From an uncultured delta proteobacterium (lineage in GTDB: Bacteria; Myxococcota_A; UBA9160; SZUA-336), in contig CAVPHD010000005.1 in NCBI GenBank assembly GCA_963704165.1, positions 244,905-308,904 of the forward strand: a DNA stretch of 64,000 nucleotides, written 5' to 3'. How positions within the stretch are numbered: position 1 is the first letter of the stretch; each line of letters starts with the position of its first letter. Below are positions 8,084-63,910 of this stretch, piece after piece. Under the pieces are notes generated by a model, which ran no database searches, was not told the DNA's origin, and saw nothing but the letters and a program-made list of their open reading frames with translations. Made by a program: the position numbers and the translations under genes.

Positions 8084-9148
8084 TCATTCCTTCGGCAACA
8101 GGGCTTCGAAGCGCGCCTTCTCGGTGGCCTTCAGGTAGGCGTCGTGCGGGGTGACGCGCTTGCTCTGCACGAGCTCGAAGAGCGCGTCGTCCATCAGCTG
8201 CATGCCGTCCTGTTTGCCCTGCTGGATGAACGAGCCGAGCATCGAGACGTTCGCCTCGCGGATGATGTTCGGCAGCGCCTTCGTCTTCAGCATGATCTCG
8301 TTCGCGGGGACGCGATCCTTGCCGTCGGCGGCGGGCAGCAGTAGCTGCGAGACGACGGCGGCCAGGGAGTCGGCGAGCGAGAGGCGCGCTTGCGCCTGCT
8401 CGTCGGCGGGAAACGTGTCGATGATGCGGTCGATCGTCTTGGGGGCGCTGTTCGTGTGCAGCGTTCCGAAGACGAGCAGGCCCATTTCGGCTGCGGTCAA
8501 CGCCAGTGAGATCGTCTCGTAGTCGCGCATCTCGCCGACGAGGACCACGTCGGCGTCCTGGCGGATCGCGGCGCGAAGACCCGGGCCGAAGCCCTTCGTG
8601 TGCGAGCCGATCTCGCGATGCGAGAAGATGCTCTTCTGGTTCTGGTGCACGAACTCGATCGGCTCCTCGAGCGTGAGGATGTGTCTCGAGCGGGTGCGGT
8701 TGATTCGATCGATGATGGCTGCCAGCGTCGTCGACTTCCCCGAGCCCGTCGGTCCGGTCACGACGACCAGGCCCTTGCGGAGCTCGGCGAGCGACTCGAT
8801 CGCCTTCGGCAGCTTAAGATCCTCGAGCGGGACGATCTTCTCGGGGATCATTCGGAGAACGGCCCCCGCGCCGCGCTCCTGCACGAAGAAGTTCGCGCGA
8901 AAGCGCGCCACGCTCTCGAGCCCATAGGCGAAGTCGAGGTCGTGGCATTCCGTGTAGCTGGCCCACTGCGCTTCGGTCGTGATCTCGCGCATCAGCTTGC
9001 GCAGGCCCGCGTCGTCGAGTGGCGTCGCCCCTGCGACCGGACGCAGCTCGCCGTTCACGCGCACGCGAGGATCGATCCCCGCGGCCAGATGCAGGTCGGA
9101 CCCGCCGTGCTGCTTCAAGTACCGAAGAAGGTCGTCGATCTGCGCCAA
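8084..9148 (-). CDS. pilT: Type IV pilus retraction ATPase PilT/PilU family
   Basis: GSDLHL, GPTGSGKSTTLAA, HILTLEEPIEF, VGEMRD, GTLHTNSA, RIID. Confidence 0.92.
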   Translation of the reverse strand: MAQIDDLLRYLKQHGGSDLHLAAGIDPRVRVNGELRPVAGATPLDDAGLRKLMREITTEAQWASYTECHDLDFAYGLESVARFRANFFVQERGAGAVLRMIPEKIVPLEDLKLPKAIESLAELRKGLVVVTGPTGSGKSTTLAAIIDRINRTRSRHILTLEEPIEFVHQNQKSIFSHREIGSHTKGFGPGLRAAIRQDADVVLVGEMRDYETISLALTAAEMGLLVFGTLHTNSAPKTIDRIIDTFPADEQAQARLSLADSLAAVVSQLLLPAADGKDRVPANEIMLKTKALPNIIREANVSMLGSFIQQGKQDGMQLMDDALFELVQSKRVTPHDAYLKATEKARFEALLPKE

Positions 9149-10661: not shown

Positions 10662-10976
10662 GGGCGGCTGAGGTATCGGCAGCCGTTCGGTGCGTTGTGA
10701 GGGACGGGGGGCCTGCGATTGGATGTGGCGAACACCCCACGATCCGACTCCAGGGTCGGGGCGAATGTGGCGAAAACCCTGCAGCGTGCAGCAGATCGGC
10801 AAGCCAGCGCATTTAGATCAGATATTTCAACTAGTTAGACGAGATCGGCGACACCGGGGAAGGCGTTTCCGGAGCGCGGGGATCGACACGAAGAGCCGCT
10901 GGCGCGTCACGCGACGCTGTAGTTTCCCACTCTCATGCGGTAGGCTGGTGAAATCGCCTCGGAGGGACCCCCCGTA

Positions 10977-20579: not shown

Positions 20580-21196
20580 ATGGATCCGCAGCATCCGAGT
20601 GCGGAGCTCCTGCTGCGCTCTATGCGCGCGGGATCTTTCCGATGGTCGATCCGCGCACCGGAGAGATCGAGTACTTCAGCCCGGATCCGCGCACCGTGAT
20701 TCCGCTCGATCGCTTCCACGTACCGCGGAGCCTCGCGCGCGTACGGGCGAAACAGCCGTTCGAGATCCGGACCGACACCGCGTTCGAGCGCGTGATTCGC
20801 GCCTGTGCGGAGCCGCGACCCGGACGGCGCGAGACGTGGATCGACGAGCGGCTGATCGGGGCGTACGTGGATCTGCACGCCCACGGACTCGCGCACAGCG
20901 TCGAGGCGTTCCTGGACGAGCGACTCGTCGGAGGCTTGTACGGCGTGCACATCGGGGCGGCGTTCTTCGGCGAGAGCATGTTCAGCCGACCGGAGCAGGG
21001 GGGCACCGATGCCTCGAAGATCTGCCTGGTCGAGCTGGTGGAAGGGCTGCGCGCCGGTGGATTCACGCTGCTCGACATCCAGTTCTCGACGCCGCACCTC
21101 GCGCGCTTCGGATGCGTCGAGATCCCGCGCGCCCGGTACCTCTCGATGCTCGAGGATGCAATCGAGCGCCGGGGGAACTGGCCGCGCGCCGGGTGA
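20580..21196 (+). CDS. aat: Leucyl/phenylalanyl-tRNA--protein transferase (frameshift at about 20615, probably an error)
   Basis: YARGIFPM, SPDPR, TWI, AHSVE, LVGGLYGV, FFGESMFS, DASKI. ATG 20580 (MDPQHPSAELLL) is one base out of frame. Confidence 0.9.
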
Positions 21197-21205
21197 GGGG
21201 TCCGC

Positions 21206-22419
21206 TCAGGCGCGTTCGGGGTCGAACGCGATGCGCATCTCCTTCACCCCGTTCACGAAGTTCGAGCGCAGGCGTCGCGGTTTCGTGACGAGGCGCGGGT
21301 TCCGGAGGCGCCCGAGCATCTCCTGGAAGATCACCGTGAGCTCGAGTCGCGCCAGGTTCGCGCCGAGGCAGTAGTGCTCTCCGATCCCGAACGCGAGGTG
21401 TTGATTGTCCGTCCGGCCGACGTCGAAGCGGTCCGGATCGACGAAGATCTCCTCGTCGCGATTCGCCGACGGGTACCACATGACGACCTTCTCGCCCTTC
21501 TTGATTCTCCGTCCCGCGGAGCTCCGTGTCGTCGGTCGCGGTGCGTCGGAAGTAGTGCACGGCCGGATCGAAGCGGACGAACTCCTCGACGGCTTGCGGC
21601 ACGAGCGCCGGATTCGCGACCAGCCGCCGGAGCTGTTCGGGATGGTCGAGCAGTGCCTTCATGCCGTTCGTCGTCACGGTGCGCGTCGTCTCGTTGCCGG
21701 CGACGAGCAACAACAGGAAGAACGAGCAGTACTCGAGCTCGTTCAGCTTCTCGCCGTCGATCTCGTGGAAGAGCAGTGCCGTGGTCAGGTTGTCGACCGG
21801 TTCCCGCCGGTACTTCTCGGCGAGCTTCATCGCGTAGCCGAACATCTGAATCGAGGCGTTTCGCGCGTCCTCCGGCGTGTTCTGGAACTCCGGGTCGTCG
21901 AAGCCGATCAGCTTGTTCGAGAGCTCGAAGATCAGCTTACGGTCGTCTTGCGGCACACCCATCAGCTCGCAGATGACCTGGAGCGGCAGCTCCGCGCGCG
22001 AGCTCCTCGACGAACTCGCACTCGCCCTTGGGAGCGACCGCGTCGACGATGCGCGTCGAGAGCGCGCGAAGATAGGGCTCCTGCTTCGCGACCATCTGCG
22101 GCGTGAAGCCGCGCTGCACGATCCGCCGGAACTTCACGTGCTGCGGTGGGTCCATGTTCAGCATGATCATCCGCAGGCCCGCGAGCCCGGTCTCGTCGCG
22201 GTCCTCGATGTTCGTTCCGCCGAGCCAGGACGAGAAGAGCAGCGGGTTGCGCGAGACCGTCTTCACGTCCTCGTACTTGGTCACGCACCAGAACCCGGGA
22301 CCGTTCTTCTCGCGGTGCCAGTGGACCGGATCCTCGCTGCGTAGCACCTTCAGCCAGTGGTGCGGAGTTCCCGGCACGAAGTTGTCGGGGTCTCCGAGGT
22401 CGATGTCGTCGAGGTTCAT
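21206..22419 (-). CDS. Cytochrome P450, CYP125/CYP142-like (steroid C26-monooxygenase family), two frameshifts at about 21995 and 21510
   Basis: Three overlapping ORFs join into one P450: LNMDPPQH..RGFTP, ELPLQVI, VAGNETTR, EEFVR, FRRTAT, SANRDE, AFGIGEHYCLGANLARLE. Confidence 0.85.
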
Positions 22420-22425
22420 CTCGCG

Positions 22426-22454
22426 ATTGGAACAGCTTCCATTCGGGGTCGCAA
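22426..22454 (-). promoter_or_regulatory. P450 promoter with KstR-like operator (22428-22441)
   Basis: Minus strand TTGCGA-N17-TCCAAT-N6-ATG. Box TGGAACAGCTTCCA has one mismatch to TnnAACnnGTTnnA. Confidence 0.65.
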
Positions 22455-22459
22455 GAAGG

Positions 22460-22488
22460 TTGAGGCGCCGATTGGAACGTGTTCCAAT
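22460..22488 (+). promoter_or_regulatory. Hydratase promoter with KstR-like operator (22473-22486)
   Basis: TTGAGG-N17-TCCAAT-N6-ATG. Box TGGAACGTGTTCCA matches TnnAACnnGTTnnA. Confidence 0.75.
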
Positions 22489-22494
22489 CGGCGA

Positions 22495-23291
22495 ATGAGT
22501 TCACCTCACGCGCTGGTCGAGAAGGAAGGTCACGTTCTGGTCGTGACGATGAATCGCCCCGAGGCGAAGAACGCCCTCTCGCCCGACATGCTCTGGCGCA
22601 TGTACGAGGCGTGGCGTCGGCTCGACGCGGACGCGGATCTTCGCTGCGCGATCCTCACCGGTGCGGGCGGGACGTTCTGCGCGGGCGCCGACCTGAAGAC
22701 GATGGGCCGCGAGAAGCCCGACGAAGAGATGCAGAGGCGCATGAAGGAGGTGCCGGACCTGCACTGGCAGGCGCTGCTCCGACACAACCGGCCGATGAAG
22801 CCGATCATCGCGGCCGTCGAGGGATACGCCGTGGCGGGTGGCACGGAGATCCTGCAGGGCACCGACATCCGCGTGGCCGGTGAGTCGGCGGTGTTCGGAG
22901 TCACGGAGGCGAAGCGCGGGCTCTTTCCGCTCGGCGGCTCGACGATCCGCCTGCGCCGGCAGATCCCGTACACGCTCGCCGCCGAGATCCTGCTGACCGC
23001 GCGCCACGTCAGCGCGAGCGAAGCCAAGCAGTTCGGTTGATCGGCCGTGTCGTGCCGACGGGAGCCGCGCTCGCGGAGGCGCGGACGATCGCCGAGACGA
23101 TCTGCGAGAACGGCCCGCTCTCGGTGCAGGCGATCCTCAAGGCGCTGCGTCTCTACGACGAGAGCATGCCCGAGTCCGAGGCGCTCGAGAAGGAGCTCGA
23201 GCTCGGCTGGCCGATCTTCGCCAGCGAGGACGCGAAGGAGGGCCCGCGCGCCTTCGCGGAGAAGCGCAAGCCGGTCTTCAAGGGACGCTAG
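22495..23291 (+). CDS. Enoyl-CoA hydratase/crotonase, EchA19-like (frameshift at about 23036)
   Basis: [50 protein letters not shown], then [29 protein letters not shown] in the next frame. Confidence 0.88.
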
Positions 23292-23294
23292 CGA

Positions 23295-24413
23295 TCAGGA
23301 TTCGGCGAGCGCGTCGCCGAGCCGCTCGAGGTGTCGGGACGCGGAGCCGAGCGTGAGTTCGATCTGTCGCGTCCAGAGATACGAGCGGTGCAGCGGATAG
23401 TCGTTGTCCATGCCGATGCCGCCGTGCAGGTGCTGCGCCGCGTAGGTCGCGTGGTTGCCGCCGTCGGCCGCCCAGATCTTGGCGACCGAGACCGCGAGCG
23501 TCGCAGGCCGGCGCTCCGCGAGCAGGAACGCCGCCTGGATCGTCGTGAGGCGCATCACTTCGAGGTGGATGAAGGCGTCGGCGGCGCGCTGGTGCACGGC
23601 CTGAAAGCTTCCGATCGGGCGATCGAACTGTTTGCGTTCGCTCGTGTAGCTCGCGGTCATGCGAAGCGCGCGCTCCGCGACGCCGACCTGCAGCGCACAG
23701 AGCCCCGTGATCGCGCGCTCGGTGATCCATGCGAGCATTTCCTTGCCGCGCGCGAGCGTGCCGAGTACGTCGTGTGCCCGGACCCGCGTGCGCTGGAGCC
23801 GGAGCGTCGCGACCGGCTCGCGGTTCGTCGCGTGCTGCATCTCGAGCTTCACACCCGGACCCTTCGGATCGACCAGGAACAGACCGACGCGTCCACCGCC
23901 GACGCTGGCCGGAACCAGGATCCGCGCAGCGAGGTGGGCCGCCGGAACGCAGACCTTGGTGCCGGAAAGCCTCCATGAGGTGCCATCGCGCGTAGCCTTC
24001 GTCGACGGCCGCGCCGGATCGTCCGAGTCGGCTTCCTCGAACGCGCCGCTGAGCACGGTCTGGCCCGCGACGACACCGGGAAGAAACTCGGCCTTCTGCG
24101 AAGCGGATCCGAATTCAGCGATCGGCAGCGCGCCGAGCACGAGCGTGCTCCAGAACGGAACCGGAGCGACGGCGCGGCCGATCTCCTCGAGCAGGCAGCA
24201 GAGCTCGATCATCCCGAGGCCGCTCCCGCCGAACTCCTCGGGTAGACACGCGCCGATCAGGTTCGCCTTCGCGAGCTCGCTCCAGAGCTCGCGGTCGTGC
24301 CCGCTCCCGGTCTTCTCGATCTCGCCGATGCGCTCGTGCGTCGCCTTGTCGCCGAGGATCTTGCGTGCGAGTTCGGAGAGCGCCTTCTGGTCGTCGCTGT
24401 AGGCGAAGTTCAT
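23295..24413 (-). CDS. Acyl-CoA dehydrogenase, short partner subunit (FadE27/ChsE5-like)
   Basis: MNFAYSDDQ, PEEFGGSGLG, RKQFDRPIGSFQAV, QHLHGGIG. Directly downstream of the FadE26-like gene. Confidence 0.85.
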   Translation of the reverse strand: MNFAYSDDQKALSELARKILGDKATHERIGEIEKTGSGHDRELWSELAKANLIGACLPEEFGGSGLGMIELCCLLEEIGRAVAPVPFWSTLVLGALPIAEFGSASQKAEFLPGVVAGQTVLSGAFEEADSDDPARPSTKATRDGTSWRLSGTKVCVPAAHLAARILVPASVGGGRVGLFLVDPKGPGVKLEMQHATNREPVATLRLQRTRVRAHDVLGTLARGKEMLAWITERAITGLCALQVGVAERALRMTASYTSERKQFDRPIGSFQAVHQRAADAFIHLEVMRLTTIQAAFLLAERRPATLAVSVAKIWAADGGNHATYAAQHLHGGIGMDNDYPLHRSYLWTRQIELTLGSASRHLERLGDALAES

Positions 24414-24420
24414 CTCGACA

Positions 24421-25599
24421 CTATGCCTTGTAGTTCGGCATCTGCAGGCCGGCCATCGCGATGATGTCGCGCTGGACTTCGTTGGTGCCGCCGCCGAAGG
24501 TGAGGATCAACGCCGTGCGGTACATGCGCTCGACGCGACCCGCGAGAATCGCGCCTGGTGAACGGGGGCCGAGCTTCCCGACCGACCCGAAGATCTCCAT
24601 GAACGCGCGGTAGGCGTCGATGAAGAACTCCGACGCATAGACCTTCACCGTCGACGCATCGGCCGGGTGCAGCCGCGAATGGGTGAGCGTCCAGGCCTGC
24701 TTCCAGAGCATCAGCTTCAGCGCTTCGCCGCCGGCGTAGCACTTCGCGAGGTTTCGGCGCACGAAGGGCTGGTCGATCACGCGCCGGCCGTCGGCGAGCT
24801 TGGTCTTCCGCGCCCAGCCGAGAACGTCGTTCTGCAGCTTTTCGAACGGTCCGATCGGAAAGAGCGAGACACGCTCGTGGTTCAGCTGACTCGTGATCAA
24901 TCCCCAGCCGTTGTTCTCGCCGCCGATCAGGTACCGAGCCGGTACGCGCACGTTGTCGAAGTAGGTCGCGTTCGTGCGCACGTCGGCCATGGTCCAGATC
25001 GGCGTCAGCTTGAAGCCCGGCGCGGTGGTGGGGACGATGAAGATCGAGATCCCGCGGTGCTTCTTGGCCTCGGGATCGGTGCGCGCGGCGAGCCAGATGT
25101 AGTCCGCGAAATCCGCGAGGCTCGTGAACGTCTTCTGGCCGTTGATCACCCACTCGTCGCCGTCGCGCACGGCGCTCGTCGTGAGCGAGGCGAGATCGGT
25201 GCCGGCCCCGGGTTCCGAGTAGCCGATCGCGAAGTGCAGGTCGCCGGTGAGGATTCGCGGCAGGATCTCCGCCTTCACCTCGTCACCGCCGTACGCCATC
25301 AGCGTCGGTCCGACCGTGCCCAGCGTGAGGAAAGGCAGCGGGAAGCCGGCGCGCTGAACCTCGTCTGCGAACAGGAACTGCTCGAGCGGCGTCCGGTCCT
25401 GTCCGCCGTATTCTTTCGGCCAGCCGATTCCGAGCCAGCCGTCGCGGCCCATCTTCTTCAACGCCTTGCGGTACTCGGGTCCACCGCCTTCACCGCCCGA
25501 CGCGAGCTCCGCCAGAAGCTCTTTCGTCATCAGCTTCGCGAAGTAGCCGCGCAGCTCATCGCGCAGCCGCTTCAGTTCGGGCGTCAGATCGATGTACAT
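24421..25599 (-). CDS. Acyl-CoA dehydrogenase, FAD-binding subunit (FadE26/ChsE4-like)
   Basis: MGRDGWLGIGWPKEYGGQ, GDLHFAIGYSEPGAGTDLASL, KKHRGIS, QLNHERV, LILTFGGGTNEVQRDII. Confidence 0.9.
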   Translation of the reverse strand: MYIDLTPELKRLRDELRGYFAKLMTKELLAELASGGEGGGPEYRKALKKMGRDGWLGIGWPKEYGGQDRTPLEQFLFADEVQRAGFPLPFLTLGTVGPTLMAYGGDEVKAEILPRILTGDLHFAIGYSEPGAGTDLASLTTSAVRDGDEWVINGQKTFTSLADFADYIWLAARTDPEAKKHRGISIFIVPTTAPGFKLTPIWTMADVRTNATYFDNVRVPARYLIGGENNGWGLITSQLNHERVSLFPIGPFEKLQNDVLGWARKTKLADGRRVIDQPFVRRNLAKCYAGGEALKLMLWKQAWTLTHSRLHPADASTVKVYASEFFIDAYRAFMEIFGSVGKLGPRSPGAILAGRVERMYRTALILTFGGGTNEVQRDIIAMAGLQMPNYKA

Positions 25600-25625
25600 C
25601 CGGGCTTCTCCTCGAGAAGACCCGC

Positions 25626-25655
25626 ATTAGAACGCGTTCCAATCCGGGCGGTCAA
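25626..25655 (-). promoter_or_regulatory. ACAD-pair promoter with KstR-like operator (25628-25641)
   Basis: Minus strand TTGACC-N18-TCTAAT. Box TAGAACGCGTTCCA matches TnnAACnnGTTnnA. Confidence 0.75.
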
Positions 25656-27109
25656 CCCGCCGAGATCGCACCGCCGCGGCGAGGATCGAAGGCGCGCAAG
25701 GCCAACGCCTCGAGGATCACGCCCTCGCGCAGACCCCAGTCGCAGATCATGAGCCCGGGCAGCGAGAGGCGCGTGAGCACGCTCGCGATCACCAGCGCAC
25801 CGGTGGGCAGGAGATCCGCGCGCTTCTCGTCCACGCCCGGCAGCGCCAGGCGTTGCGCGTGACTGGATCTCGAGAGGCGGCGCGCGAGCGAGTCGAAGTC
25901 GTCGGTGGAGACGAGCAGGCCGCGCAGCTCCGCGGTCGGCGTATCGTCGGCGATGCCGAGCAGAATCCGCGCGAGTGCGCGCACCGTCCCACCCGCCGCG
26001 ATGCAGCGTGCGGGACCGAGCGCGCGAACCCGGCCCGCGAACGGATCGAGTGCGTCCTCGACGCGCGCACGGATCGCCTTCACTTCGGCGGCCGACATGG
26101 GATCGGAGCGGACCAGTTCCCCGTGCAGACGCGTGACTCCCAGACGAAGGGTCGCCTCGAAGCGCAGTCCAGCGGCATTCCCGACGGCGAGCTCGAGGCT
26201 TCCGCCGCCGAGGTCGAGACCGAGCGCGTTCTCGTCTCCGAGTCCGACGCGCCGGCGGAACGCCGAGAAGATCAGACGAGCCTCGTCTTCGCCCGACAGG
26301 ATGCGAACTTCGCTGCCGAGCGCGCGTCCGAGCCGTTCGGCGAGCTTGCGGCCGTTCTTCGCATCGCGGATCGCGGACGTCGCGACCGCGACCAGCTCCT
26401 GCGCGCCCGTGCGGTCCGCGGCGCGTCCGAGCCTTCGCCCCGCCTCCACCGCCTTGTCGCAGATCTCGTCGGACAGCTTCGAGTCCAGCGCGACGGCCGC
26501 GCCGAGGCGCAGCATCTCGCGCTCGCGCGCGACTCGCACGATGTGACCATCGGCCGTGAAATCCGCGACGAGCAGCGTGAACGAGGTGCTGCCCAGATCG
26601 ACGACGCCGATACGCCGAACGGTGTCGAGGTCGGGTGTGGCGGCGCCGGCGCGCGCCGGCGGAAGATACGAGGCGCGCGCGGGTCCGCTCGCGCCGTTCT
26701 GCAGAAACCAGGTCGATCCCTTCGGACAGCCGGCGCCGCCTTCCATCGCGAGCGCTCCCGGAACCAGCTTCTCGACGAGCGCCGGGATCAGATCGCCGTG
26801 AGCCGCGAGCATCGCAGGCTCGGAGCCGAGCGAGCGCACGAGCGCAATGGCTCCCGTCAGGCTTGCACCTTCGCTGAGCCGGGCGTCGACCTCGACGGGA
26901 AGGCCGAAGCGCGCGGCCACGGGCTCTGCCGTCTGGCGGCAGCGCAGGGCCGGACTCGAGAGCACGCGCGCGAGGGAGACACCTTCGAACCGCTCGACCA
27001 GACCCATGGCCTGGTCGTGTCCGGCCGGCGAGAGGGGCCGCATGCCGTCGGACGACTCCCAGCCCGTGCGGCGCTGCGCCTTCGCGTGCCGAACCAGATA
27101 GATCTTCAC
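25652..27109 (-). CDS. ppx: SixA-like histidine phosphatase fused to Ppx/GppA exopolyphosphatase
   Basis: N-terminal KIYLVRHAKA..RPLS..SSPALRCRQTA..AHGD. C-terminal DLGSTSF, ATSAIRDAKNG, ILSGEDEA, DLGGGSLEL, GLREG. Confidence 0.85.
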   Translation of the reverse strand: MKIYLVRHAKAQRRTGWESSDGMRPLSPAGHDQAMGLVERFEGVSLARVLSSPALRCRQTAEPVAARFGLPVEVDARLSEGASLTGAIALVRSLGSEPAMLAAHGDLIPALVEKLVPGALAMEGGAGCPKGSTWFLQNGASGPARASYLPPARAGAATPDLDTVRRIGVVDLGSTSFTLLVADFTADGHIVRVAREREMLRLGAAVALDSKLSDEICDKAVEAGRRLGRAADRTGAQELVAVATSAIRDAKNGRKLAERLGRALGSEVRILSGEDEARLIFSAFRRRVGLGDENALGLDLGGGSLELAVGNAAGLRFEATLRLGVTRLHGELVRSDPMSAAEVKAIRARVEDALDPFAGRVRALGPARCIAAGGTVRALARILLGIADDTPTAELRGLLVSTDDFDSLARRLSRSSHAQRLALPGVDEKRADLLPTGALVIASVLTRLSLPGLMICDWGLREGVILEALALRAFDPRRGGAISAG

Positions 27110-27120
27110 TCCCGTCCCTT

Positions 27121-29202
27121 CTACGAAGCCGTACGCGGCAGGTTCTTGTCCTCGGGTAGAACTCGCTGGCGAGCGAGGTCTCGGAAGCGCGCGTGCGAAT
27201 CGGGAACGCCCGTCGCCGCTTCGCGCCGCCAGACCCCGTCGGGATCGAGCGACCAGGAAAGTGGATTCGGCTCGAGGTTCACCGTCACGATCTCCTCCAG
27301 ACGCGCCTGTAGCGCCGGGTCGTCGATCTGGGCCAGCGTCTCGACGCGCCGGTCGAGGTTGCGCGTCATCAGGTCGGCGGAGCCGACGAAATACCGCGGC
27401 GTTCGATCCGGGTGACCGAATCGGAAGATGCGGGAGTGCTCGAGGAAGCGTCCAAGCGTCGAGTGCACGCGAATCCGTCCCTCGACGCCCTCGGCGTCGG
27501 GCCGCAGGCAGCAGATGCTGCGGACGATCAGGTCGATCTCGGTTCCGGCGCGCGCTGCCGCATAGAGCGCGTCGATGATTCCTTCGTCGGAAAGGTTGTT
27601 CACCTTGATCACGATCCGACCCGCATCGGACTCCGTCTCGCGCCGGATCTCGTCGAGCAATCGCGAGCGCAGCGTCGCCGGAGCGACGAGCAGTCGCCGG
27701 TACCCGCCCGGCCGACCGCAGCCTGTCAGATAGTTGAAGACCTCGGAGATGTCGGCGCCGAGCTCGGGATTCGCGGAGAGCACGCCGACGTCCTCGTAGG
27801 TATCGGCGGTCGTCGCGTTGTAGTTCCCCGTGCCGATGTGGCAGTAGCGCCGGATCTCGTTGCCCTCGCGCCGCACCACCAGCGCGATCTTCGCGTGGGT
27901 CTTCAGGCCGACGATGCCGTAGACGACGTGCACGCCCGCCTGCTCGAGTCGCCGCGCCCATTCGATGTTCGAGCTCTCGTCGAAGCGCGCTTTGAGCTCG
28001 ATCAGCGCGACGACTTCCTTGCCCGTCTGCGCACCGCGCATCAGCGCACGCACGATCGGGTTGTCGCGACCCGATGTCCGGTACAAGGTGTGCTTGATCG
28101 CGAGCACGTCGGGATCCGTCGCGGCTTGCGTGAGGAAGGCCTCCACCGAGCTCCGGAACGAGTCATACGGGTGGTGAACGAGCACGTCGCCGTCGCGAAT
28201 CACGCGAAACAGGTCGGGTGGGCCATCGCTGGGCAGCAGGCGAGGAGGCGTCTGCGGCAACCACGGTTCGTCCTTCAAATCGGAGCGATCGAGCGCATAC
28301 AGCGACCAGAGACTCCGCAACCCGAGTGGCCCGTCGAGCACGTAGACCTCGTCGTGCTCGAGCTCGAGCTCGGCGATGAGCAGATCGCGAACGCGCGTGG
28401 ACATGCTTCGGTCGATCTCGAGCCGGACGGCGTCGTTCATGCGCAATCGACGTTGAAGCCCGGACTGGATGGCTTCGAGAAGGTCGTCGGCGTCGTCCTC
28501 GTCGAGCGAGAGCTCGGCGTCGAGCGTCAGGCGGAACGGGTGGTTCGAGACGATCTCCATGCCGCGGAAGAGCGCATCGAGATGAGCGGCGATCAGCTGC
28601 TCGATCGGGAGGAATCGTTCGCCGTCGGGAAGCGCGTAGAAGCGCGGCAGCAGGCCAGGCACCTTCACGCGCGCGAAGTGGCTCTCTCCGGAACCCGTTT
28701 CGCGCACGATCACGGCGAGGTTCAGCGACAGGTTCGACACGTACGGAAACGGGTGCGCCCGATCGACGGCCTGGGGCGTGAGAACCGGCAGGATCTGTTC
28801 CTCGAAGACACTTCGGAGTCGGTCGCGTTCGATCTGATCGAGCTCTGCCCATCCGACGAGACGAATTCGATTCTCGGCGAGCGCCGGCAGGATCTCCTTG
28901 TGAAGGACGCCTTCCTGCACACGAAGCTGATCGAGGACCTGCTTGCGGATCTCCGCGAGTTGCTCGCGCGGCGTTCGGCCATCCGAGGCGGGCCGGGTCA
29001 CGCCAGCATCGACTTGCGCGCGCAAGCCCGCCACGCGCACTTGGAAGAACTCGTCGAGGTTCGAGCCCACGATCGCGAGGTACTTCACGCGCTCGAGCAG
29101 CTTCTGCCCGGGATCCTCGGCCAGAGCCAGCACGCGGCGGTTCCAGTCGAGCCAGGAGAGCTCGCGGTTGAGGAATCGCGCCTGATCTGGAGCCGTCGGC
29201 AT
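27121..29202 (-). CDS. ppk1: Polyphosphate kinase 1
   Basis: FLNRELSWL, NLDEFFQVRVAGL, HPFPY, HHPYDSF, ELKARFDE, LKTHAK, GTGNYN, RFLEHSR, SADLMTRNLDRRVE. Confidence 0.96.
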   Translation of the reverse strand: MPTAPDQARFLNRELSWLDWNRRVLALAEDPGQKLLERVKYLAIVGSNLDEFFQVRVAGLRAQVDAGVTRPASDGRTPREQLAEIRKQVLDQLRVQEGVLHKEILPALAENRIRLVGWAELDQIERDRLRSVFEEQILPVLTPQAVDRAHPFPYVSNLSLNLAVIVRETGSGESHFARVKVPGLLPRFYALPDGERFLPIEQLIAAHLDALFRGMEIVSNHPFRLTLDAELSLDEDDADDLLEAIQSGLQRRLRMNDAVRLEIDRSMSTRVRDLLIAELELEHDEVYVLDGPLGLRSLWSLYALDRSDLKDEPWLPQTPPRLLPSDGPPDLFRVIRDGDVLVHHPYDSFRSSVEAFLTQAATDPDVLAIKHTLYRTSGRDNPIVRALMRGAQTGKEVVALIELKARFDESSNIEWARRLEQAGVHVVYGIVGLKTHAKIALVVRREGNEIRRYCHIGTGNYNATTADTYEDVGVLSANPELGADISEVFNYLTGCGRPGGYRRLLVAPATLRSRLLDEIRRETESDAGRIVIKVNNLSDEGIIDALYAAARAGTEIDLIVRSICCLRPDAEGVEGRIRVHSTLGRFLEHSRIFRFGHPDRTPRYFVGSADLMTRNLDRRVETLAQIDDPALQARLEEIVTVNLEPNPLSWSLDPDGVWRREAATGVPDSHARFRDLARQRVLPEDKNLPRTAS

Positions 29203-29404
29203 TCTGGTCACACCGGGGGGCAACGAGGTTCGGATGCGACGTGTCGCACGTCGCGGGAAACGCAGAATACGATATCTGCAGGAGATATCTCGGCAGCTTC
29301 GATCTCGGCTTGAAGTCGCGTGCGGATCACGACCGGATTTTCGGGCCCGCGAGGTCGATGCACGGGTTTCCGAAACGGCCCGGTCTGACGTACCGTCGGC
29401 GGTC

Positions 29405-30559
29405 GTGAGGCTTCGCCAGGGCGCGCAGAACTTCGAAGTCACGGAGCTGCCGATCTACGAGCCCGAGGGCGCGGGTGAGCACCTGTACGCGTGGATCGAG
29501 AAGGAAGGCGTGGATTCGGAGCAGGTGGTCGATGCGCTCCGCGCTGCAACGGGACGGCCGGCGCGCGACATCGGCTATGCGGGACGGAAGGACCGCTCGG
29601 CGATCACGCGTCAGTGGTTCAGCATCCGGCTCGCGACCGAAGGGGCGCTGCAGCGACTCGAAGCGCCCGCGGGTGGACGGATCTCGGTGCTCGAGGTCTC
29701 GCGTGACCGCAGCAAGCTCCGGCTCGGACAGCTGCGCGGGAACCGATTTCGGCTCGGAATCGACACGGAGGGCGACGAGGGAGCGCTGGCCACGTCGCGG
29801 GCCCGCCTCGCGCACATGACCGAGTTCGGTGTAGTCAACCGATTCGGCGCGCAGCGTTTTGGCATCGGCTCCGCGAACATCGAGATCGCGATCGCCTGGG
29901 GTCGGGGCGATGCCGCGCGCGCTGCATCGCTGTGCATCGACCCGACCGGAGCGTGGAAGCTCGGAGAGCCGCTGCCCTCGGGCTTCCGTCCGGGTCCCTC
30001 CGGACGCGTGCTCGGGGCGCTTCGACGCGCACCCGGGGACCCGAGTCTCGCACTCCGCGCCGCGGGGACGCGCTTCGCGAAGCTGATCGCATCTGCGGCG
30101 CAGAGCGCAGTCTTCAACGCGGTGCTCGAGGCGCGCCGCGGCGCCGGCTTGCTTCACACGCTGCGTGTCGGCGACGTCGCCCGCCGCCGCGAGGGCGGAC
30201 TGTTCCGCTGTCTTCCGGAAGACCTCGAGACCCTGAACGCGAGTGCGGCGCCGGGTACGCTCGCGATCGCCGCGACGGGTCCGCTTCCGGGGTCCGAGAT
30301 GTACGCGCCGGGTCCCGGAGTCGGCAACGAGGAGCGGGCCTGGAGCGAAGCGACCGGCGTGGATTGGAGCATCTTCGACTCCGGTTCCGTGCTCGCGAGC
30401 CCCGGCGATCGCCGCGCGTTGATCGTGCCCTTTCTCGAGCCTCCGAGGCTCGACGCCGATCGAGACGTCGTCTGGATCGACTTCGCGCTCCCCTCCGGCA
30501 GCTATGCGACCGAAGTGATGACTCAACTCGGTGTAGAGCTCCCCGAGCGTCGCGCCTAG
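29405..30559 (+). CDS. truD: tRNA pseudouridine(13) synthase TruD (start uncertain)
   Basis: FEVTE, GAGEH, YAGRKDRSAITRQWFS, GNRF, NRFGAQRFG, SAAQSAVFN, TGPL, FALPSGSYAT. Confidence 0.9.
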   Translation: MRLRQGAQNFEVTELPIYEPEGAGEHLYAWIEKEGVDSEQVVDALRAATGRPARDIGYAGRKDRSAITRQWFSIRLATEGALQRLEAPAGGRISVLEVSRDRSKLRLGQLRGNRFRLGIDTEGDEGALATSRARLAHMTEFGVVNRFGAQRFGIGSANIEIAIAWGRGDAARAASLCIDPTGAWKLGEPLPSGFRPGPSGRVLGALRRAPGDPSLALRAAGTRFAKLIASAAQSAVFNAVLEARRGAGLLHTLRVGDVARRREGGLFRCLPEDLETLNASAAPGTLAIAATGPLPGSEMYAPGPGVGNEERAWSEATGVDWSIFDSGSVLASPGDRRALIVPFLEPPRLDADRDVVWIDFALPSGSYATEVMTQLGVELPERRA

Positions 30560-30668
30560 GACCTCGCAGGCGATCCTGGTCATCAGCGTCGGATGCGTCC
30601 TGCGCCGAACGGACGCAAGGCCGGCACGCCTCGCTCCGATAGTCCGGAAGACGCCGGGCGATCAGGGA

Positions 30669-31562
30669 GTGCCCGACGAATTGCCGCATCTCCGCACTCG
30701 AACTCGAGTGAATCGGGAGCCGAGCGACCTGACGATGCCCGACGCGCTCACGATGTCGATCGCTCTCGCGCGAGGGCTCGCCACGGCGCACGAGGTGCTC
30801 CACGTCGAGGGAATGCGCGCGGCCGCGGCGCTCGAGGGAAACCCGTTCGAGGTCGAGGTCCGGCGCTTCGGCCGCGCGACCGCGACGCTCTCGGCGAAGC
30901 TGGGGCTCGTGGAATCGTACAACCGTGTCGTCGGCCTCGAGCTCCAGGACGCGCGCGCGATTCCCGAGATGCTCGCGTTCTTCCGCACTCGAGGCATCCG
31001 CGCGCGCTTCGAGATCGGCCCGGCGGAGCTGACCTCGGCGCTCGCACTCCAGCTCGCGATCGAGAGGGTCGGAGTCGAACGGATCGAGACGGTGGTTCAC
31101 GCACCGATCGCCGCCCTGGTGCCCCCGCGCGCGAGTCGCGTGCGGGTGAGACCGTCGCCGTTCGAGGAGCTCGATACGTTTCTCGAGATCTGGGCGCGCG
31201 GCTTCGCGCTGCCGGAGTTCCTCTGGGCGGACGTGAAGCGGATGCGCGCGGCCTGGTTCAGCATCCCGACGCTCGAGCGCTACGTGGCGATCATCGATGG
31301 TGAGCCGATCGCCTGCGCTGGCCTCTACGTCCACGGTGACGTCGGCTACCTGTGCGAATCGGCGACGCTCCCCGAGGCGCGTGGCCGTGGCGCGCAGGCC
31401 GCGTTGATCGCCCGACGCTGGCGCGACGCCGCTGCTTCGGGATGTCGACACGTGATGAGCACGACCTCGTTTGGCGGAACGAGCCAGAGCAACATGGAGC
31501 GCGCGGGAATGCGGACCGCACACTCCATGTGCATCTGGCTCGACTACGGCCTGGGATTCTGA
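30669..31562 (+). CDS. GNAT family N-acetyltransferase
   Basis: SATLPEARGRGAQAALIARR, SQSNMERAG acetyl-CoA-binding motifs. Confidence 0.8.
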   Translation: MPDELPHLRTRTRVNREPSDLTMPDALTMSIALARGLATAHEVLHVEGMRAAAALEGNPFEVEVRRFGRATATLSAKLGLVESYNRVVGLELQDARAIPEMLAFFRTRGIRARFEIGPAELTSALALQLAIERVGVERIETVVHAPIAALVPPRASRVRVRPSPFEELDTFLEIWARGFALPEFLWADVKRMRAAWFSIPTLERYVAIIDGEPIACAGLYVHGDVGYLCESATLPEARGRGAQAALIARRWRDAAASGCRHVMSTTSFGGTSQSNMERAGMRTAHSMCIWLDYGLGF

Positions 31563-31585
31563 CCCGACCGACGCTGCCAAACGGC

Positions 31586-31614
31586 TTGTCGCCCGAACTG
31601 GAACGTGTTCCAAT
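31586..31614 (+). promoter_or_regulatory. Promoter with KstR-like operator (31599-31612)
   Basis: TTGTCG-N17-TCCAAT. Box TGGAACGTGTTCCA is identical to the one at 22473. Confidence 0.72.
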
Positions 31615-31708
31615 TGCCTCGACGAAGGCGCAGGCACGGCACGGGAAGGGCGGAGTCGAGGAGGACGCCGAGTCGGTCGTCGGAGCTGCTCCGGGAGGGA
31701 GTTTCTCA

Positions 31709-32344
31709 TTGAGGCATCCTCTTCGGTTGCATCCCGCGATGACGGCTTCTGGAGTCGTGGCGATCGTCCTCGCTCTGGCGGTGCCCGCGTCTTCGTCATC
31801 GACCGCTCCCCAACCCGGGTGGGCGGGCGTACCGGCCGGCGGCGGCTTCGAGGCGGAACCGAGCTGCACTTCGTGCCACACGGGCTTTCCGCTGAACTCC
31901 GACGGGCGAGGAGCTCTGACGCTTTCTGGTGTTCCCACCCATTACGCTCCGGGAAAGCGCTATCCGCTCGTGCTCGAGCTGCGGCATCCCGACGAAGAGC
32001 TCCGCCGCTGGGGCTTTCAGCTCACCGCGGTTCGTGCCCAGACGCTCTCGGGCGCGGGATCGTTCATCGTGACCGACGCTCCGAACACGGAGCTCATCCG
32101 CGGAACCGTCGGAGATCGCGAATACATGAGCCACTCCTACTACGGCACCGGCGTCGGCGAGGCGGGCGGCTACCACTGGGGTTTCGACTGGATCGCTCCC
32201 GAGCGTGGAGCCGGTCGGGTCGAGTTCTACGGGGTCGGGAGCGCCGCGAATCTGGACGGCTCGCAGGAGGGCGACCGGATCTACGGTCCGGGGCCGAAGC
32301 CGCTCGCGATCACAGACCCCAAGCCGGACGCGGCGAAGGAGTAG
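31709..32344 (+). CDS. Secreted Reeler-like / choice-of-anchor V domain protein with CxxCH motif
   Basis: Signal peptide, AGVP..EPSCTSCH, GVPTHYAPG, WGFQLTA, FDWIAP, ANLDG..GDRIY. TTG 31709 follows a GGAGG Shine-Dalgarno; alternative ATG 31739. Confidence 0.7.
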   Translation: MRHPLRLHPAMTASGVVAIVLALAVPASSSSTAPQPGWAGVPAGGGFEAEPSCTSCHTGFPLNSDGRGALTLSGVPTHYAPGKRYPLVLELRHPDEELRRWGFQLTAVRAQTLSGAGSFIVTDAPNTELIRGTVGDREYMSHSYYGTGVGEAGGYHWGFDWIAPERGAGRVEFYGVGSAANLDGSQEGDRIYGPGPKPLAITDPKPDAAKE

Positions 32345-32348
32345 CGGC

Positions 32349-33221
32349 ATGAGATTCTGGCAGTCCGTATCGCTCACCGAACCCGACCAGGTCGTCGAGA
32401 TCGCGAAGATCTCCGAAGAGGTCGGGTTCGACGGGATCCTCGTGTCCGACCATCTGTTCTTTCCCGAGAAGCTCACGTCGAAGTATCCCTACTCGCCGGA
32501 TGGCGTTCCCGGTTTCACGGCGGAGACGGCGTGGCCCGAGCCGTTTGCGCTGATCGCCGCGATGAGCGCGGTCACGCGACGCGTGCGCTTCGCGACGATG
32601 GTCTACATCCTTCCGCTTCGAAATCCGCTCGAGGTCGCGAAGGCGACGGCCACGCTCGACGTGCTCTCGGGTGGGCGATTCGTTCTCGGCGTCGGCGCGG
32701 GCTGGATGAAAGAGGAGTTCGACCAGCTCGGAGTGGACTTCCACACGCGCGGCGCGCGCCTCGACGAGTCGATCGACGTCCTGCGAACGATCTGGTCCGG
32801 CGGCATGGTCGAGCACCACGGGCGCTTCTTCGATTTCCCGCGTCTGCAGATGAGCCCGAAGCCGACGCAGGACGTGCCGATCTACGTCGGCGGCGCGAGC
32901 CCTGCGGCCCTGCGTCGCACGGCGCTCCGCGGCGATGGCTGGCTCGGAAACGGGTCGGACCCGGAAGAGGCATCGCGCGTACTCGCCGAGTTGAAGCGTC
33001 TGCGCCACGAAGCGGGTCGCGAGAATTCGCCGTTCGAGGCCGTCGTTCCGCTCACGACGCCGGCCGACGCCGACGTGCTGCGCAGGCTCGAGGACCAGGG
33101 CGCGCACGGCACCGTCAGCTACCCGATCCTGTACGCGCTCGGGCCGACGTCGACGCTCTCCGAGAAGCGCCGCTACCTCGAGAACTACGCGGAAACGGTG
33201 ATCCGAAAAGTGCCGAGCTGA
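32349..33221 (+). CDS. LLM-class (probably F420-dependent) oxidoreductase
   Basis: GFDGILVSDH, YPYSPDG, ATLDVLSGGRFVLGVGAGWMKEEF, PIYVGG. Confidence 0.88.
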   Translation: MRFWQSVSLTEPDQVVEIAKISEEVGFDGILVSDHLFFPEKLTSKYPYSPDGVPGFTAETAWPEPFALIAAMSAVTRRVRFATMVYILPLRNPLEVAKATATLDVLSGGRFVLGVGAGWMKEEFDQLGVDFHTRGARLDESIDVLRTIWSGGMVEHHGRFFDFPRLQMSPKPTQDVPIYVGGASPAALRRTALRGDGWLGNGSDPEEASRVLAELKRLRHEAGRENSPFEAVVPLTTPADADVLRRLEDQGAHGTVSYPILYALGPTSTLSEKRRYLENYAETVIRKVPS

Positions 33222-34894
33222 TGGCCGACCTCGAGGCCATTGCCGCCAAGCTCACGGGTCCGGGCGGCCCGTTCGAGATCGTCGTCGAGGACGTGCTCGG
33301 CACGCGCATGCCGGTTTTCAAGAATCGACTGCGCTCGCTGCGGGCGCTTCTCGAGCAATCGGCCGCCCACGACGACAAGGAGTACCTCGTCTGCGAGGGC
33401 CGACGCATTTCCTATGCGGAGCACCTGCGCCGGGTCGCACACGTGGCGGTCGCGCTTCGCGAGCGCTTCGGCGTCGGCAAGGGGGATCGCGTCGCGATCC
33501 TCGCCGCGAACTGCCCGGAGTGGATCATCGCGTTCTGGGCGGCGCAGGCGCTCGGCGCGATCGCCGTGGGATTGAACGGCTGGTGGGCGGGCGACGAGAT
33601 CATCTTCGGGATTCGCGATTGCGACCCGAAGGTCCTGATCGCGGATCGCCGCCGACTCGAGCGCGTGCCGGGGTCCGCGCTCGGGATCCCGATCGTCGAG
33701 ATCGAGTCCGATTTCGAGAAGCTCGCCTCGGGCGATGGCGAAGCGGTGCTTCCCGACGCCGCGATCTCCGAGGACGATCCCGCCGCGATCCTCTACACGA
33801 GCGGCACGACCGGACGACCCAAGGGCGCGATCAACACGCAGCGCAACATCCTCGCACTGCTCGGGATCCAATTCTTCCACGGCGTGCGACTGATGATGGC
33901 TGCCGCCGCCGACGGGCGCGTGGCGTCCGGTCCGCCGCGACCGACCTGTGCTCTCGTCACGACACCGCTCTTCCACGTCTCGGGTCTGTACACCGGAGCG
34001 ATCGTGATGCTCGCCAGCGGTGCGAAGACGGTCTGGCGTACGGGTCGCTTCGACGCCGAAGACGTCATGCGCCTGATTGCGCGCGAGCAGATCACTTCGT
34101 GGGCGCCGATGGGCACGATGGCCCACCGCGTCGTCCACCACCCAAGCGTCGGCAAGTACGATCTATCGAGCATCGTCAGCATCGGCTCGGGCGGCGCTCC
34201 GACGAGTCCCGAGCTGCAGGCGAAGATCCGAGACGCATTTCCATCCGCGCGCGCGAGCTTCGGGCTCGGTTACGGCCTCACCGAGTGCACCGCGCTGGCG
34301 ACGATCTCGTTCGGCGAGGACCTCGCGCGCCATCCGCACTCCGTCGGACAGCCGCTACCGACCGTAGAGATCGAGATCCGCGACGGCGGCGGCCGCGCGC
34401 TGCCCGAGGGCGAGACCGGCGAGATCTGCATCCGGAGCCCGCTCGTGATGGCCGGGTACTGGCGCAACCCGCGCGCCAGCGCCGAGTCGATCGTCGCCGA
34501 TCGCTGGCTTCGCAGCGGCGACGTCGGACGGATCGAGGACGGCCGGCTGTACGTCGATTCGCGCGCGCGCGATCTGATCCTGCGCGGCTCCGAGAACATC
34601 TACCCGGTCGAGATCGAGCAGCGCCTCGAAGCGCATCCCGACGTGCTCGAGGCGGCGGTGGTCGGCGTCGATCACGACGAGCTGGGCCAGGAGGTGAAGG
34701 CGATCGTCGTCGTCCGCTCCGGAGCGCGCCCGACGCCATCTCTGCTCGCCGCGTGGGTGGCCGACACGCTCGCCGCCTTCAAGGTTCCCGCGCATTGGCA
34801 GCTCGGCGAAGAACCGCTGCCGCGAAACGCCACCGGCAAGATCCTGAAGGACGTCCTCACGGGAGCGAGTGCGAATCCGTTCGTCGCCGAGTAG
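33221..34894 (+). CDS. Long-chain acyl-CoA synthetase (AMP-binding, FadD-like)
   Basis: LYTSGTTGRPKG, GYGLTE, GDVG, ENIYPVEIE, LPRNATGKILK. Confidence 0.92.
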   Translation: MADLEAIAAKLTGPGGPFEIVVEDVLGTRMPVFKNRLRSLRALLEQSAAHDDKEYLVCEGRRISYAEHLRRVAHVAVALRERFGVGKGDRVAILAANCPEWIIAFWAAQALGAIAVGLNGWWAGDEIIFGIRDCDPKVLIADRRRLERVPGSALGIPIVEIESDFEKLASGDGEAVLPDAAISEDDPAAILYTSGTTGRPKGAINTQRNILALLGIQFFHGVRLMMAAAADGRVASGPPRPTCALVTTPLFHVSGLYTGAIVMLASGAKTVWRTGRFDAEDVMRLIAREQITSWAPMGTMAHRVVHHPSVGKYDLSSIVSIGSGGAPTSPELQAKIRDAFPSARASFGLGYGLTECTALATISFGEDLARHPHSVGQPLPTVEIEIRDGGGRALPEGETGEICIRSPLVMAGYWRNPRASAESIVADRWLRSGDVGRIEDGRLYVDSRARDLILRGSENIYPVEIEQRLEAHPDVLEAAVVGVDHDELGQEVKAIVVVRSGARPTPSLLAAWVADTLAAFKVPAHWQLGEEPLPRNATGKILKDVLTGASANPFVAE

Positions 34895-34898
34895 CCGG

Positions 34899-35702
34899 TT
34901 ACGCTGGACTCCCGGGCGGGCGAGGCAGACCGACGAGGAAGGTCGCGTGCACCGGTGGGCCGACGAGGCGAATGCGCCCGATCTCCCAGATGTACGCATC
35001 ACGGTGTCGCGGCTCGAGCGATTCGACGAGCGCGCGGAGCTCCGGTGGCGAGTAGACGCGGAAGCAGGACACGAGCCCGTCCCAGAGCACGAAGAGCGGC
35101 AGGATCGGCACCAGGTACGTGAACGGGATCCACGACCAACGGAACGGGCGCAGGAACGGCAAGGAGAGCGCGAAGAAGATCGGCGCGAAGAGGATGCCGA
35201 CGATCGAGAGCGGTTCGCGCCCGATCGCCTCGAAGATCGCGATCGGGCGACCGCGGTCCGCCGCGTCCGCGAGGATCCGCCGTGCGGCCTCCGGGCGGAA
35301 GTGGTGCAGCGCGTTGAAGATCGTGCGAACTCCAGCCAGCTCGGGTGGCACGCGTGTCGCGTCGACGGGCTCGCGGTGCCAGTCGATGCGTCCCGAAGAG
35401 CCCGCCGCGACGCGCGAGAGCGCAGCTTCGTTCGGGTAGAAGTCCGTGAGTAGGGCGCGGACCTCGATGCCCTCGCACGCAAGCCGATCGATGATCCCCG
35501 CGATCGGCCCCGCGCCTCCGGAACACAGATCGACGACGCGTTTCTCGCCGACCGCCGCGAGCGTCGCGCCGAGCTTGGGTGCGAGGGCTTCCGGATGTCC
35601 GGCAAGGCGCGACGCGAACTCCAGGTACGCGGTTCCGGCGTCGCGCAGGACCGACGGGAACCATGGCTGGTCCTCGAGTTCGAACAGGTGCAATCGGTTC
35701 AT
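34899..35702 (-). CDS. Class I SAM-dependent methyltransferase-like protein
   Basis: RLHLFELEDQPWFP, VVDLCSGGAGP, LTDFYPN, FNALHHF. Confidence 0.75.
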   Translation of the reverse strand: MNRLHLFELEDQPWFPSVLRDAGTAYLEFASRLAGHPEALAPKLGATLAAVGEKRVVDLCSGGAGPIAGIIDRLACEGIEVRALLTDFYPNEAALSRVAAGSSGRIDWHREPVDATRVPPELAGVRTIFNALHHFRPEAARRILADAADRGRPIAIFEAIGREPLSIVGILFAPIFFALSLPFLRPFRWSWIPFTYLVPILPLFVLWDGLVSCFRVYSPPELRALVESLEPRHRDAYIWEIGRIRLVGPPVHATFLVGLPRPPGSPA

Positions 35703-50077: not shown

Positions 50078-50410
50078 GTGATCGTGCCCGGCAGGCCGGG
50101 ACGCGAGCACCTGCTCGCGCTCCTCGAGTTCCGCCGCACCAAGCCATCCCTTCTGCTCGAGCAGCTTCTCGAGAGCTGCCCGAAAGCGCTCGTAGTAGTT
50201 CCAGGTCGCCGCGGGCGCTCCGCTCTGCTCCCACTCCGCGATCTCGGCGATCAATCGGACGCGGAACTCGTCCCAGTCGAAGAGCTCGCGCTCTCGCAGG
50301 GCTGCAGCCAGGCCGAAGACGCGGCTCTCCCAGGGCGAGGCGAAGACGAATTCGCCGTTCAGCCGCGGAGGCCCGAGCGGATCGTCGGCTTTGAAGAAGG
50401 GCTCGGTCAT
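50069..50410 (-). CDS. Nitrile hydratase accessory protein (P14K/NhlE-like)
   Basis: [36 protein letters not shown], His-containing tail. Confidence 0.88.
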
Positions 50411-51625: not shown

Positions 51626-51686
51626 GCCGCGAGTATAGGCCGAGCCGGTGGGGGCGAGCGCATTAGGTTTTTGCTCTAATCCGCGC

Positions 51687-55959: not shown

Positions 55960-60230
<4,271 letters not shown>

Positions 60231-60245
60231 AGAGGGGGTTGGATC

Positions 60246-63910
<3,665 letters not shown>

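Follow-up and report, generated by a model that had tools for sequence, protein, structure and literature searches.

The question raised by this locus is whether the KstR switch, a TetR-type repressor acting on a palindromic operator, functions in a non-actinobacterial, diderm host. The stretch of DNA analyzed here (the window; 64,000 nucleotides [nt] in full) comes from the genome of an uncultured member of the Myxococcota, presumably of class UBA9160 (3.87 Mb, 68% G+C, 84% complete). Four 14-bp palindromes, at 22428-22441, 22473-22486, 25628-25641, and 31599-31612, lie ahead of a P450 gene, an enoyl-coenzyme A (CoA) hydratase gene, an acyl-CoA dehydrogenase pair, and an LLM-ligase operon, respectively. 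We interpret them as predicted operators of a KstR-family TetR protein encoded elsewhere in the genome (G000:C4:30429-31106), which would govern a sterol regulon, and assign this reading a probability of roughly 85%. Because four sites precede sterol side-chain genes and one precedes the KstR-like gene, the KstR switch likely works outside Actinobacteria.

The palindrome positions and the TTG-N17/18-TC(C/T)AAT arrangement claimed in the original prediction were all read back from the sequence. Toward its gene, each site presents a TTG hexamer, a spacer of 17 or 18 nt, and TCCAAT or TCTAAT, which consists of the end of the palindrome plus two further bases. Operator 1 (22426..22443, minus strand, core 22428-22441) combines TTGCGA (22449-22454), N17, and TCCAAT (22426-22431), followed after 6 nt by the P450 ATG. 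Operator 2 (22471..22488, plus strand, core 22473-22486) has TTGAGG (22460-22465), N17, and TCCAAT (22483-22488), again 6 nt from the hydratase ATG at 22495. Operator 3 (25626..25643, minus strand, core 25628-25641), with TTGACC (25650-25655), N18, and TCTAAT (25626-25631), precedes the dehydrogenase pair; the ATG follows after 26 nt, and this gap includes GAGGAG, which resembles a ribosome-binding site. Operator 4 (31597..31614, plus strand, core 31599-31612) carries TTGTCG (31586-31591), N17, and TCCAAT (31609-31614) ahead of the fourth operon, and the next start lies about 95 to 125 nt downstream.

A genome scan for the motif indicates that its placement is not random. The published loose consensus, TnnAACnnGTTnnA, gave 16 matches in the window with at most one mismatch, versus a mean of 4.53 (maximum, 9) in 100 shuffles. 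Three of the four window sites match the 14-bp TnnAACnnGTTnnA exactly, as does the fifth site at the KstR-like gene, and the remaining window site, that of the P450, has one mismatch. On its own, TnnAACnnGTTnnA is not specific, with 25 exact matches genome-wide, 4 of which are operator-type sites. With at most two mismatches allowed, a tighter 18-bp consensus, derived from one window site and so circular for the window, yielded 5 sites across the 3.87 Mb, every one of them intergenic, and 0 sites in 4 simulated genomes. A weight matrix built from 31 sites of relatives, with the genome's own loci excluded and the sites chosen with the window-derived pattern, gave 29.7 to 33.7 bits to the kstR site and to three of those in the window. 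Two in-gene matches (19.6 and 18.3 bits) rank above the P450 site (16.8 bits); the in-gene matches at C1:319979 and C4:111350 were rejected as operators. The window holds one more exact match to TnnAACnnGTTnnA, at 10826-10839, which was likewise rejected because the matrix gave it less than 9 bits.

The existence of a KstR-like TetR gene outside the window, as had been predicted, is borne out by the C4 gene, one of 27 TetR_N matches in the genome. The site 6 nt before its start is the only strong site genome-wide besides those of the window, and it differs at one base from the 18-mer listed ahead of mycobacterial kstR in Table 3 of PMC1995591. The protein comprises TetR_N and TetR_C_20 domains (PF17925, 38.3 bits; cutoff, 26.5). 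Searched against PDB sequences, it matches KstR best (E = 8e-23; about 30% identity); after 3bjb, the top entry not of KstR type reaches E = 4e-08. The top ten fold matches of its predicted model (pLDDT, 92.9) are all KstR chains, with an rmsd of 1.7 to DNA-bound KstR. Among the called proteins, the C4 protein and a paralog (clade B; G000:C8:50258-50839), which has no upstream site, are the sole strong matches to two actinobacterial KstRs (E = 1e-21 to 1e-24, versus 2e-07). Within the DNA-binding domain, 23 of 43 residues are identical between the C4 protein and Nocardia KstR. The window's own TetR (6284-6958) was discarded as the repressor, having neither a KstR match nor a site. Pfam PF21351, tried as a KstR domain, proved to be the wrong family and has no match in the genome.

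The C4 gene heads an operon with two OB-fold genes, two thiolase genes (PRK07937 and PRK08313 families), and a ligase gene, and is divergent from an Rv3520c-family gene. The divergent operon (L001:9217-16904) encodes the Rv3520c-family F420 enzyme, EthD, DUF3047, and GNAT proteins, an MMPL/RND transporter, and an SDR protein. Of these products, the transporter could take part in sterol traffic within the diderm envelope.

The genes behind the window operators are, by similarity only, sterol side-chain genes: CYP125, EchA19, ChsE4/E5, and CasG, joined outside the window by the Ltp3/Ltp4-type and Rv3520c-family genes. The first (21206..22419, minus strand; Pfam p450) encodes a CYP125-like cytochrome P450, predicted to act as a steroid C26 monooxygenase; the assembly has it spread over three frames. 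The intact P450 ortholog of a relative (G027; L094:12130-13341) has CYP125 entries as its top matches. The reconstructed ancestor CYP125MRCA (E = 2e-145) is matched far better than modern CYP125 (E = 2e-94), a hint of an early-branching enzyme. The EchA19-like enoyl-CoA hydratase (22495..23291, plus strand; two frames) has NCBIfam PRK07799 and EchA19 as top matches, and an intact ortholog matches EchA19 structures at E = 8e-93. The ChsE4 (FadE26)-like dehydrogenase subunit (24421..25599, minus strand) and its ChsE5 (FadE27)-like partner (23295..24413, minus strand) best match PDB entries 4x28_A (E = 5e-139) and 6wy8_A (E = 6e-90; 4x28_D, E = 1e-59), respectively; we take 4x28 and 6wy8 to be ChsE4/ChsE5 structures.

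For the fourth operon, the site and its placement stood up as predicted, and the label "Reeler" for the first gene found no support. A Pfam scan of this open reading frame (31739..32344, plus strand; alternative start TTG at 31709 possible) returned no family, and NCBIfam identifies its product as a choice-of-anchor V protein (NF041895, 73.7 bits; cutoff, 42) with a hydrophobic N terminus and a CxxCH motif. The protein is probably exported and heads the LLM-ligase operon in 12/12 genomes of the genus; we know of no counterpart in the mycobacterial regulon. Downstream lie genes for an F420-dependent LLM-class oxidoreductase of the TIGR03619 family (32349..33221, plus strand; 242.5 bits, cutoff 166.9) and a CasG-like acyl-CoA ligase, a predicted steroid-24-oyl-CoA synthetase (33221..34894, plus strand). 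The ligase scores 726 bits on NF052580, just below the cutoff of 750, with the next family at 367 bits.

The frames of the P450 and hydratase genes are broken by single-base indels relative to the closest relative examined (G021, 97% complete), near 21515 and 21997 in the former and near 23034 in the latter. Assembly error is the likely cause, because many other genes are split by indels too, including rpoB, rpoC, a BamA-like gene, and the thiolase and ligase genes of the kstR operon. That cyp125 and echA19 are pseudogenes was judged unlikely, as the indels are of single bases in short runs and rpoB and others are split likewise. Split genes occur, for example, at window positions 21206-23291 and 55960-63952, a pattern typical of an unpolished long-read assembly.

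Conservation in relatives supports the prediction that the motif is kept upstream of orthologs. The host is diderm and non-actinobacterial, as had been proposed: the four closest relatives of the KstR-like protein among genome records with a title (69 to 80% identical) belong to the same genus and carry the labels Myxococcota, Myxococcales, or Deltaproteobacteria, and the genome encodes Omp85 together with PilT-like, PEP-CTERM, and OmpA proteins. Within the genus, the site is found before cyp125 and before chsE4 in 12/12 genomes each. The full site before echA19 is present in 10/12, with the promoter-like half retained in the other two. Relatives in the genus also carry the same site before KshA-like genes. 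At kstR loci of the C4 type (clade A; 33 examined, 2 of them without upstream DNA), a site of at least 22.7 bits lies 5 to 11 nt before a start in 31/31 cases, versus a site within 300 nt in only 1 of 16 clade-B loci.

KstR-like genes occur in 23 of the 32 order genomes and in 156 of the 191 class genomes. A strict exact pattern was found in 108/156 class genomes with a KstR-like gene and in 7/35 without, with 28/191 for a reversed control, counts in which kin are not independent. Of 301 genomes sampled from the phylum, 51/59 inside the class and 44/242 outside it match the KstR model. Thirteen of these 44 out-of-class loci were inspected: 8 have sites nearby, preceding kstR, echA19, kshA-like, or OB-fold genes, and 5 do not. 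Tandem or overlapping operator pairs were seen in other Myxococcota (L149:10398-10430, L146:6419-6459 and 8690-8728, and L137:15969-16008).

The position of the operators suggests a second role. The original prediction had the operator's right arm forming the -10 box. Across the genome, TANNNT before an ATG peaks at a spacing of 6 nt; counts at 6 to 9 nt are 46, 30, 24, and 33 of 988 unit heads, and 0 to 1 at spacers of 0 to 5. Such a distribution suggests that leaderless messages are common in this lineage. Three operators place TC(C/T)AAT in this 6-nt slot. Among 44 distinct oriented sites from the loci examined, the proximal arm reads TCTAAT, TCCAAT, or TTCAAT in 41, TG stands ahead of it in 42, and a TNGACA-like hexamer lies 17 to 18 nt upstream. 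The distal arm is more variable, ending in AAT in only 18, and its T, A, A, and C are invariant in 44/44, a figure that site selection favors. In two genus genomes (G024 and G025), the distal arm before echA19 has decayed and TTGAGA-N17-TCCAAT is intact. Persistence of the gene-proximal arm in places where the palindrome is eroded is what a promoter element would show. A sigma-70 promoter scanner found 0 promoters at 21000-35000, because it requires an A at -11. We infer that the operators are also weak extended -10 promoters with a noncanonical hexamer. Position, asymmetry, and persistence of the arm agree with the earlier proposal, and a hexamer without A at its second position does not. Two operator-free genes carry TGnTC(C/T)AAT 6 nt before the ATG (window 51675-51689 and G000:C9:240088-240105); the G021 ortholog of the former has a TAACTC-like stretch in its place.

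Several observations weigh against a KstR-type sterol regulon under the C4 protein. At the level of the sites, operator 1 is the weakest and is degenerate, operator 4 is present in 4 and absent from 7 of the 11 genus genomes with upstream DNA, and A at -11 occurs in 0/44 oriented sites, although the primary sigma factor has a canonical region 2. The strict pattern is missing from 48/156 KstR-positive class genomes, such as 10/11 in family f8; the kstR loci of these genomes carry variant sites. At the level of the protein, the C4 TetR scores 110.3 bits on the NCBIfam KstR model NF033703, short of the cutoff of 280, which is exceeded by 0/301 genomes of the phylum sample (all 95 matches lie below). 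By profile, the protein has the KstR C-terminal domain (TetR_C_20) and falls short of the NCBIfam equivalog. The ligand domain shares only 29 of 135 residues with Nocardia KstR, and the Arg of the KstR IARV stretch, which we take to be a ligand contact, is not conserved; the two tryptophans of the C-terminal helix, whose roles we likewise presume, are conserved in 49/49 and 48/49 rows. Finally, G021 has lost the C4-type kstR and retains all five sites, and KshA_C and HsaC were not found in the present genome at its 84% completeness.

The case of G021 shows that the sites can persist without the C4-type gene, and it bears on an unlikely alternative in which the operators are bound mainly or equally by the clade-B paralog and the autoregulated C4 gene is dispensable. 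G021 keeps an intact clade-B gene along with its five sites; at L090:9037-9063, its operator-promoter is joined straight to the OB-fold gene. In four further genomes (G002, G007, G017, and G018), clade B is the only KstR-like match and lies inside a site-headed operon, and in the present genome the C4 and C8 paralogs have 30 of 43 DNA-binding-domain residues in common. However, the C8 gene has no site upstream, and the ratio of 1/16 clade-B loci to 31/31 C4-type loci with a site favors the C4 type. The C8 protein moreover reads ADRLRD for AVRLRD, a substitution seen in 1 of 49 rows.

A second alternative accepts repressor and sites and replaces the sterol by long-chain, branched, or other isoprenoid acyl-CoAs as signal and substrate. 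Mycobacterial KstR was indeed first presented as a general lipid regulator (PMC1995591). The poorly conserved ligand domain and the missing KshA and HsaC would also fit, as would the NCBIfam cutoffs missed by the intact EchA19 ortholog (364 of 400 bits) and by CasG (726 of 750). However, the closest solved relative of each target is a sterol enzyme, and FadD3 and steroid 3-ketoacyl-CoA thiolase score above their cutoffs in this genome, which also has a KstD-like gene (frameshifted) and an IpdA-like gene (matching PDB 6co6/6con, presumably IpdA). Together with the KshA-like genes behind the same site in relatives and the conserved C-terminal tryptophans, this makes a nonsterol regulon distinctly improbable. 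In the weight-matrix scan, the FadD3, steroid thiolase, KstD-like, and IpdA-like genes have no operator site.

GGAAC and TCTAA resemble ECF boxes. That the motif is a mere alternative-sigma promoter consensus without a repressor role is very improbable. In its favor, the hexamer lacks the -11 A of this genome's ordinary promoters, two genomes keep the proximal arm after decay of the palindrome, and two nonoperator genes carry TGnTC(C/T)AAT 6 nt before the ATG. Against it, the distal-arm T, A, A, and C are invariant (selection of sites favoring this), the 18-mer matches a proven KstR operator (PMC1995591, Table 3), and the motif tracks the KstR-like gene across the class.

The interpretation of the four palindromes as operators of the C4 protein can be set beside the known KstR regulon, and the system likely works like it, as a known switch in a new phylum. 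The claim that a KstR-like repressor runs a sterol or lipid regulon in this lineage has held: the motif is nonrandomly placed, a KstR-like protein is encoded, and sites are conserved upstream of orthologs (12/12, 12/12, 10/12, 31/31, and 4/11 for cyp125, chsE4, echA19, kstR, and the fourth operon), with binder and ligand deduced from sequence. A dimer of the C4 protein on the operator would exclude RNA polymerase from the sterol side-chain promoters and from its own promoter, the proximal arm TGnTC(C/T)AAT acting as an extended -10 element 17 to 18 nt after a TTG-type -35 element. Messages of cyp125, echA19, and kstR would lack a leader. If the pathway runs as in mycobacteria, CYP125 would oxidize the end of the sterol side chain and a ligase would convert the product to its CoA ester. 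This steroid acyl-CoA ester would then derepress the genes for ChsE4-E5, EchA19, and the Ltp3/Ltp4-type thiolases, along with the others. The C8 paralog may bind the same sites.

KstR of mycobacteria, Rhodococcus, and Nocardia (Rv3574/MSMEG_6042) has the same operator and the same TetR_N plus TetR_C_20 fold, and is autoregulated from a site overlapping its promoter, as is predicted for the C4 gene. Predicted common targets are cyp125, echA19, fadE26/27, ltp3/ltp4, and the Rv3520c-like and Rv3521-like genes, with kshA-like genes in relatives, and in both systems a site separates the Rv3520c-like gene from the OB-fold/thiolase operon. Table 3 of Kendall 2007 (PMC1995591) lists KstR sites at Rv3503c/3504, Rv3515c/3516, Rv3520c/3521, Rv3545c/3546, and kstR. 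In a Nocardia record, sites precede ferredoxin/chsE4, the Rv3520c-like gene, cyp125, kshA, and kstR; because the loose pattern gave 15 matches there versus 11 for a reversed control, only the gene context of these sites counts. In contrast to the actinobacterial systems, the host here is a diderm member of the Myxococcota, the repressor sits on a separate branch, and there are two paralogs. Five strong sites in an 84% complete genome compare with 16 to 31 in mycobacteria, kstR lies inside the Rv3520c/Rv3521-like cluster, and the proximal arm is fixed as TGnT(C/T)(T/C)AAT, 5 to 11 nt before the start. The choice-of-anchor V protein and the CasG-like ligase are added members, and searches of this genome recovered neither kshA nor hsaC.

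Other relatives of the system are more distant. FadR (Bacillus/Thermus) and PsrA share the TetR fold, an acyl-CoA ligand class, and a palindrome over a beta-oxidation promoter, but they match the C4 protein far more weakly (sequence E = 4e-08; fold rmsd of at least 5), and the targets here are sterol-type enzymes. For the KstR2 regulon of steroid C/D-ring genes, the genome has the gene set (ipdAB-like, echA20-like, fadA6-like, and fadD3) on contig C11 without the present motif; a KstR2-type pattern occurs 3 times in the genome, in no case at an obvious promoter of this cluster.

A tree of 149 rows (127 of 150 domain-covering representatives plus 22 loci) separates the three named actinobacterial KstRs from all Myxococcota loci by a branch with a support of 99. 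Its labels are thin, because a group name was obtained for only 4 of 20 unlabeled rows looked up; two of these (Acidimicrobiia and Actinomycetota) fall on one side of the branch and two (Polyangiales and Myxococcota) on the opposite side. A second tree of 45 chosen rows, rooted with six other TetRs of this genome on long outgroup branches and with sides taken from the first tree, gave supports of 97 for the KstR family, 95 for the Myxococcota side, and 67 for the actinobacterial side. These trees give no indication that the gene came recently from mycobacteria.

KstR is described as an actinobacterial regulator, and survey work places aerobic steroid degradation in Actinobacteria and Proteobacteria (PMC5790920). 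We found no literature on KstR in Myxococcota or on steroid degradation in this lineage, in a search mostly outside subscription journals. The passages located by term searches in PMC5348764, PMC6678751, PMC5790920, PMC12100521, and bioRxiv 10.64898/2026.09.18.752586 make no mention of Myxococcota. With a KstR circuit conserved across this class and scattered through others, the phyla contributing to sterol turnover in the environment would grow by one. The motif offers a ready tool for mapping sterol genes in uncultured genomes, including members without a mycobacterial counterpart, and the system a natural test of a TetR that keeps its DNA code while the ligand pocket drifts. The mechanism is a familiar one: repressor, operator, and target set are all known, and the host is new.

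Taken jointly, these observations permit a wider reading, which we hold tentatively and find somewhat doubtful as a whole. The uncultured Myxococcota class would comprise overlooked sterol degraders (KstR-like genes in 156/191 genomes, IpdA in 158/191). The KstR operator code would have remained unchanged since an ancient split from, or a transfer with, the Actinobacteria, and the operators would double as noncanonical extended -10 promoters for leaderless messages. In the genus, the pathway would be split between sublineages, with the C/D-ring part in two genomes and the A/B-ring part in the others. IpdA occurs in 2/10 genomes of the genus, a pattern opposite to that of KshA_C and HsaC, which were also not found in G021 (97% complete) and were found in the other 10 genus genomes. 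IpdA is present in this genome (G000 C11:167340-168958, the same locus as L086:15341-16959) and in G021, and neither KshA_C nor HsaC gave a match in the two. Among the remaining genus genomes, the 8 that are at least 80% complete have 4 to 5 KshA_C and 1 to 3 HsaC-like matches, and IpdA was not found in them with the same query. HsaA-like matches, below the cutoff, occur in 5/5 genomes tested and are stronger in the three with HsaC. If true, such a split into C/D-ring and A/B-ring halves would force cross-feeding on steroid intermediates.

The C/D-ring cluster is flanked on C11 by a xanthine-dehydrogenase-family trio (C11:209998-213799) and by fragments that we read from the sequence as carboxylase-like (C11:151075-154323). 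These genes gave no specific family match and no paper on such a route was found; oxygen-independent steroid steps by way of their products are possible. In the window, nitrile hydratase beta, alpha, and accessory genes, which are absent at the matching place in G021, occupy positions 50069-51688.

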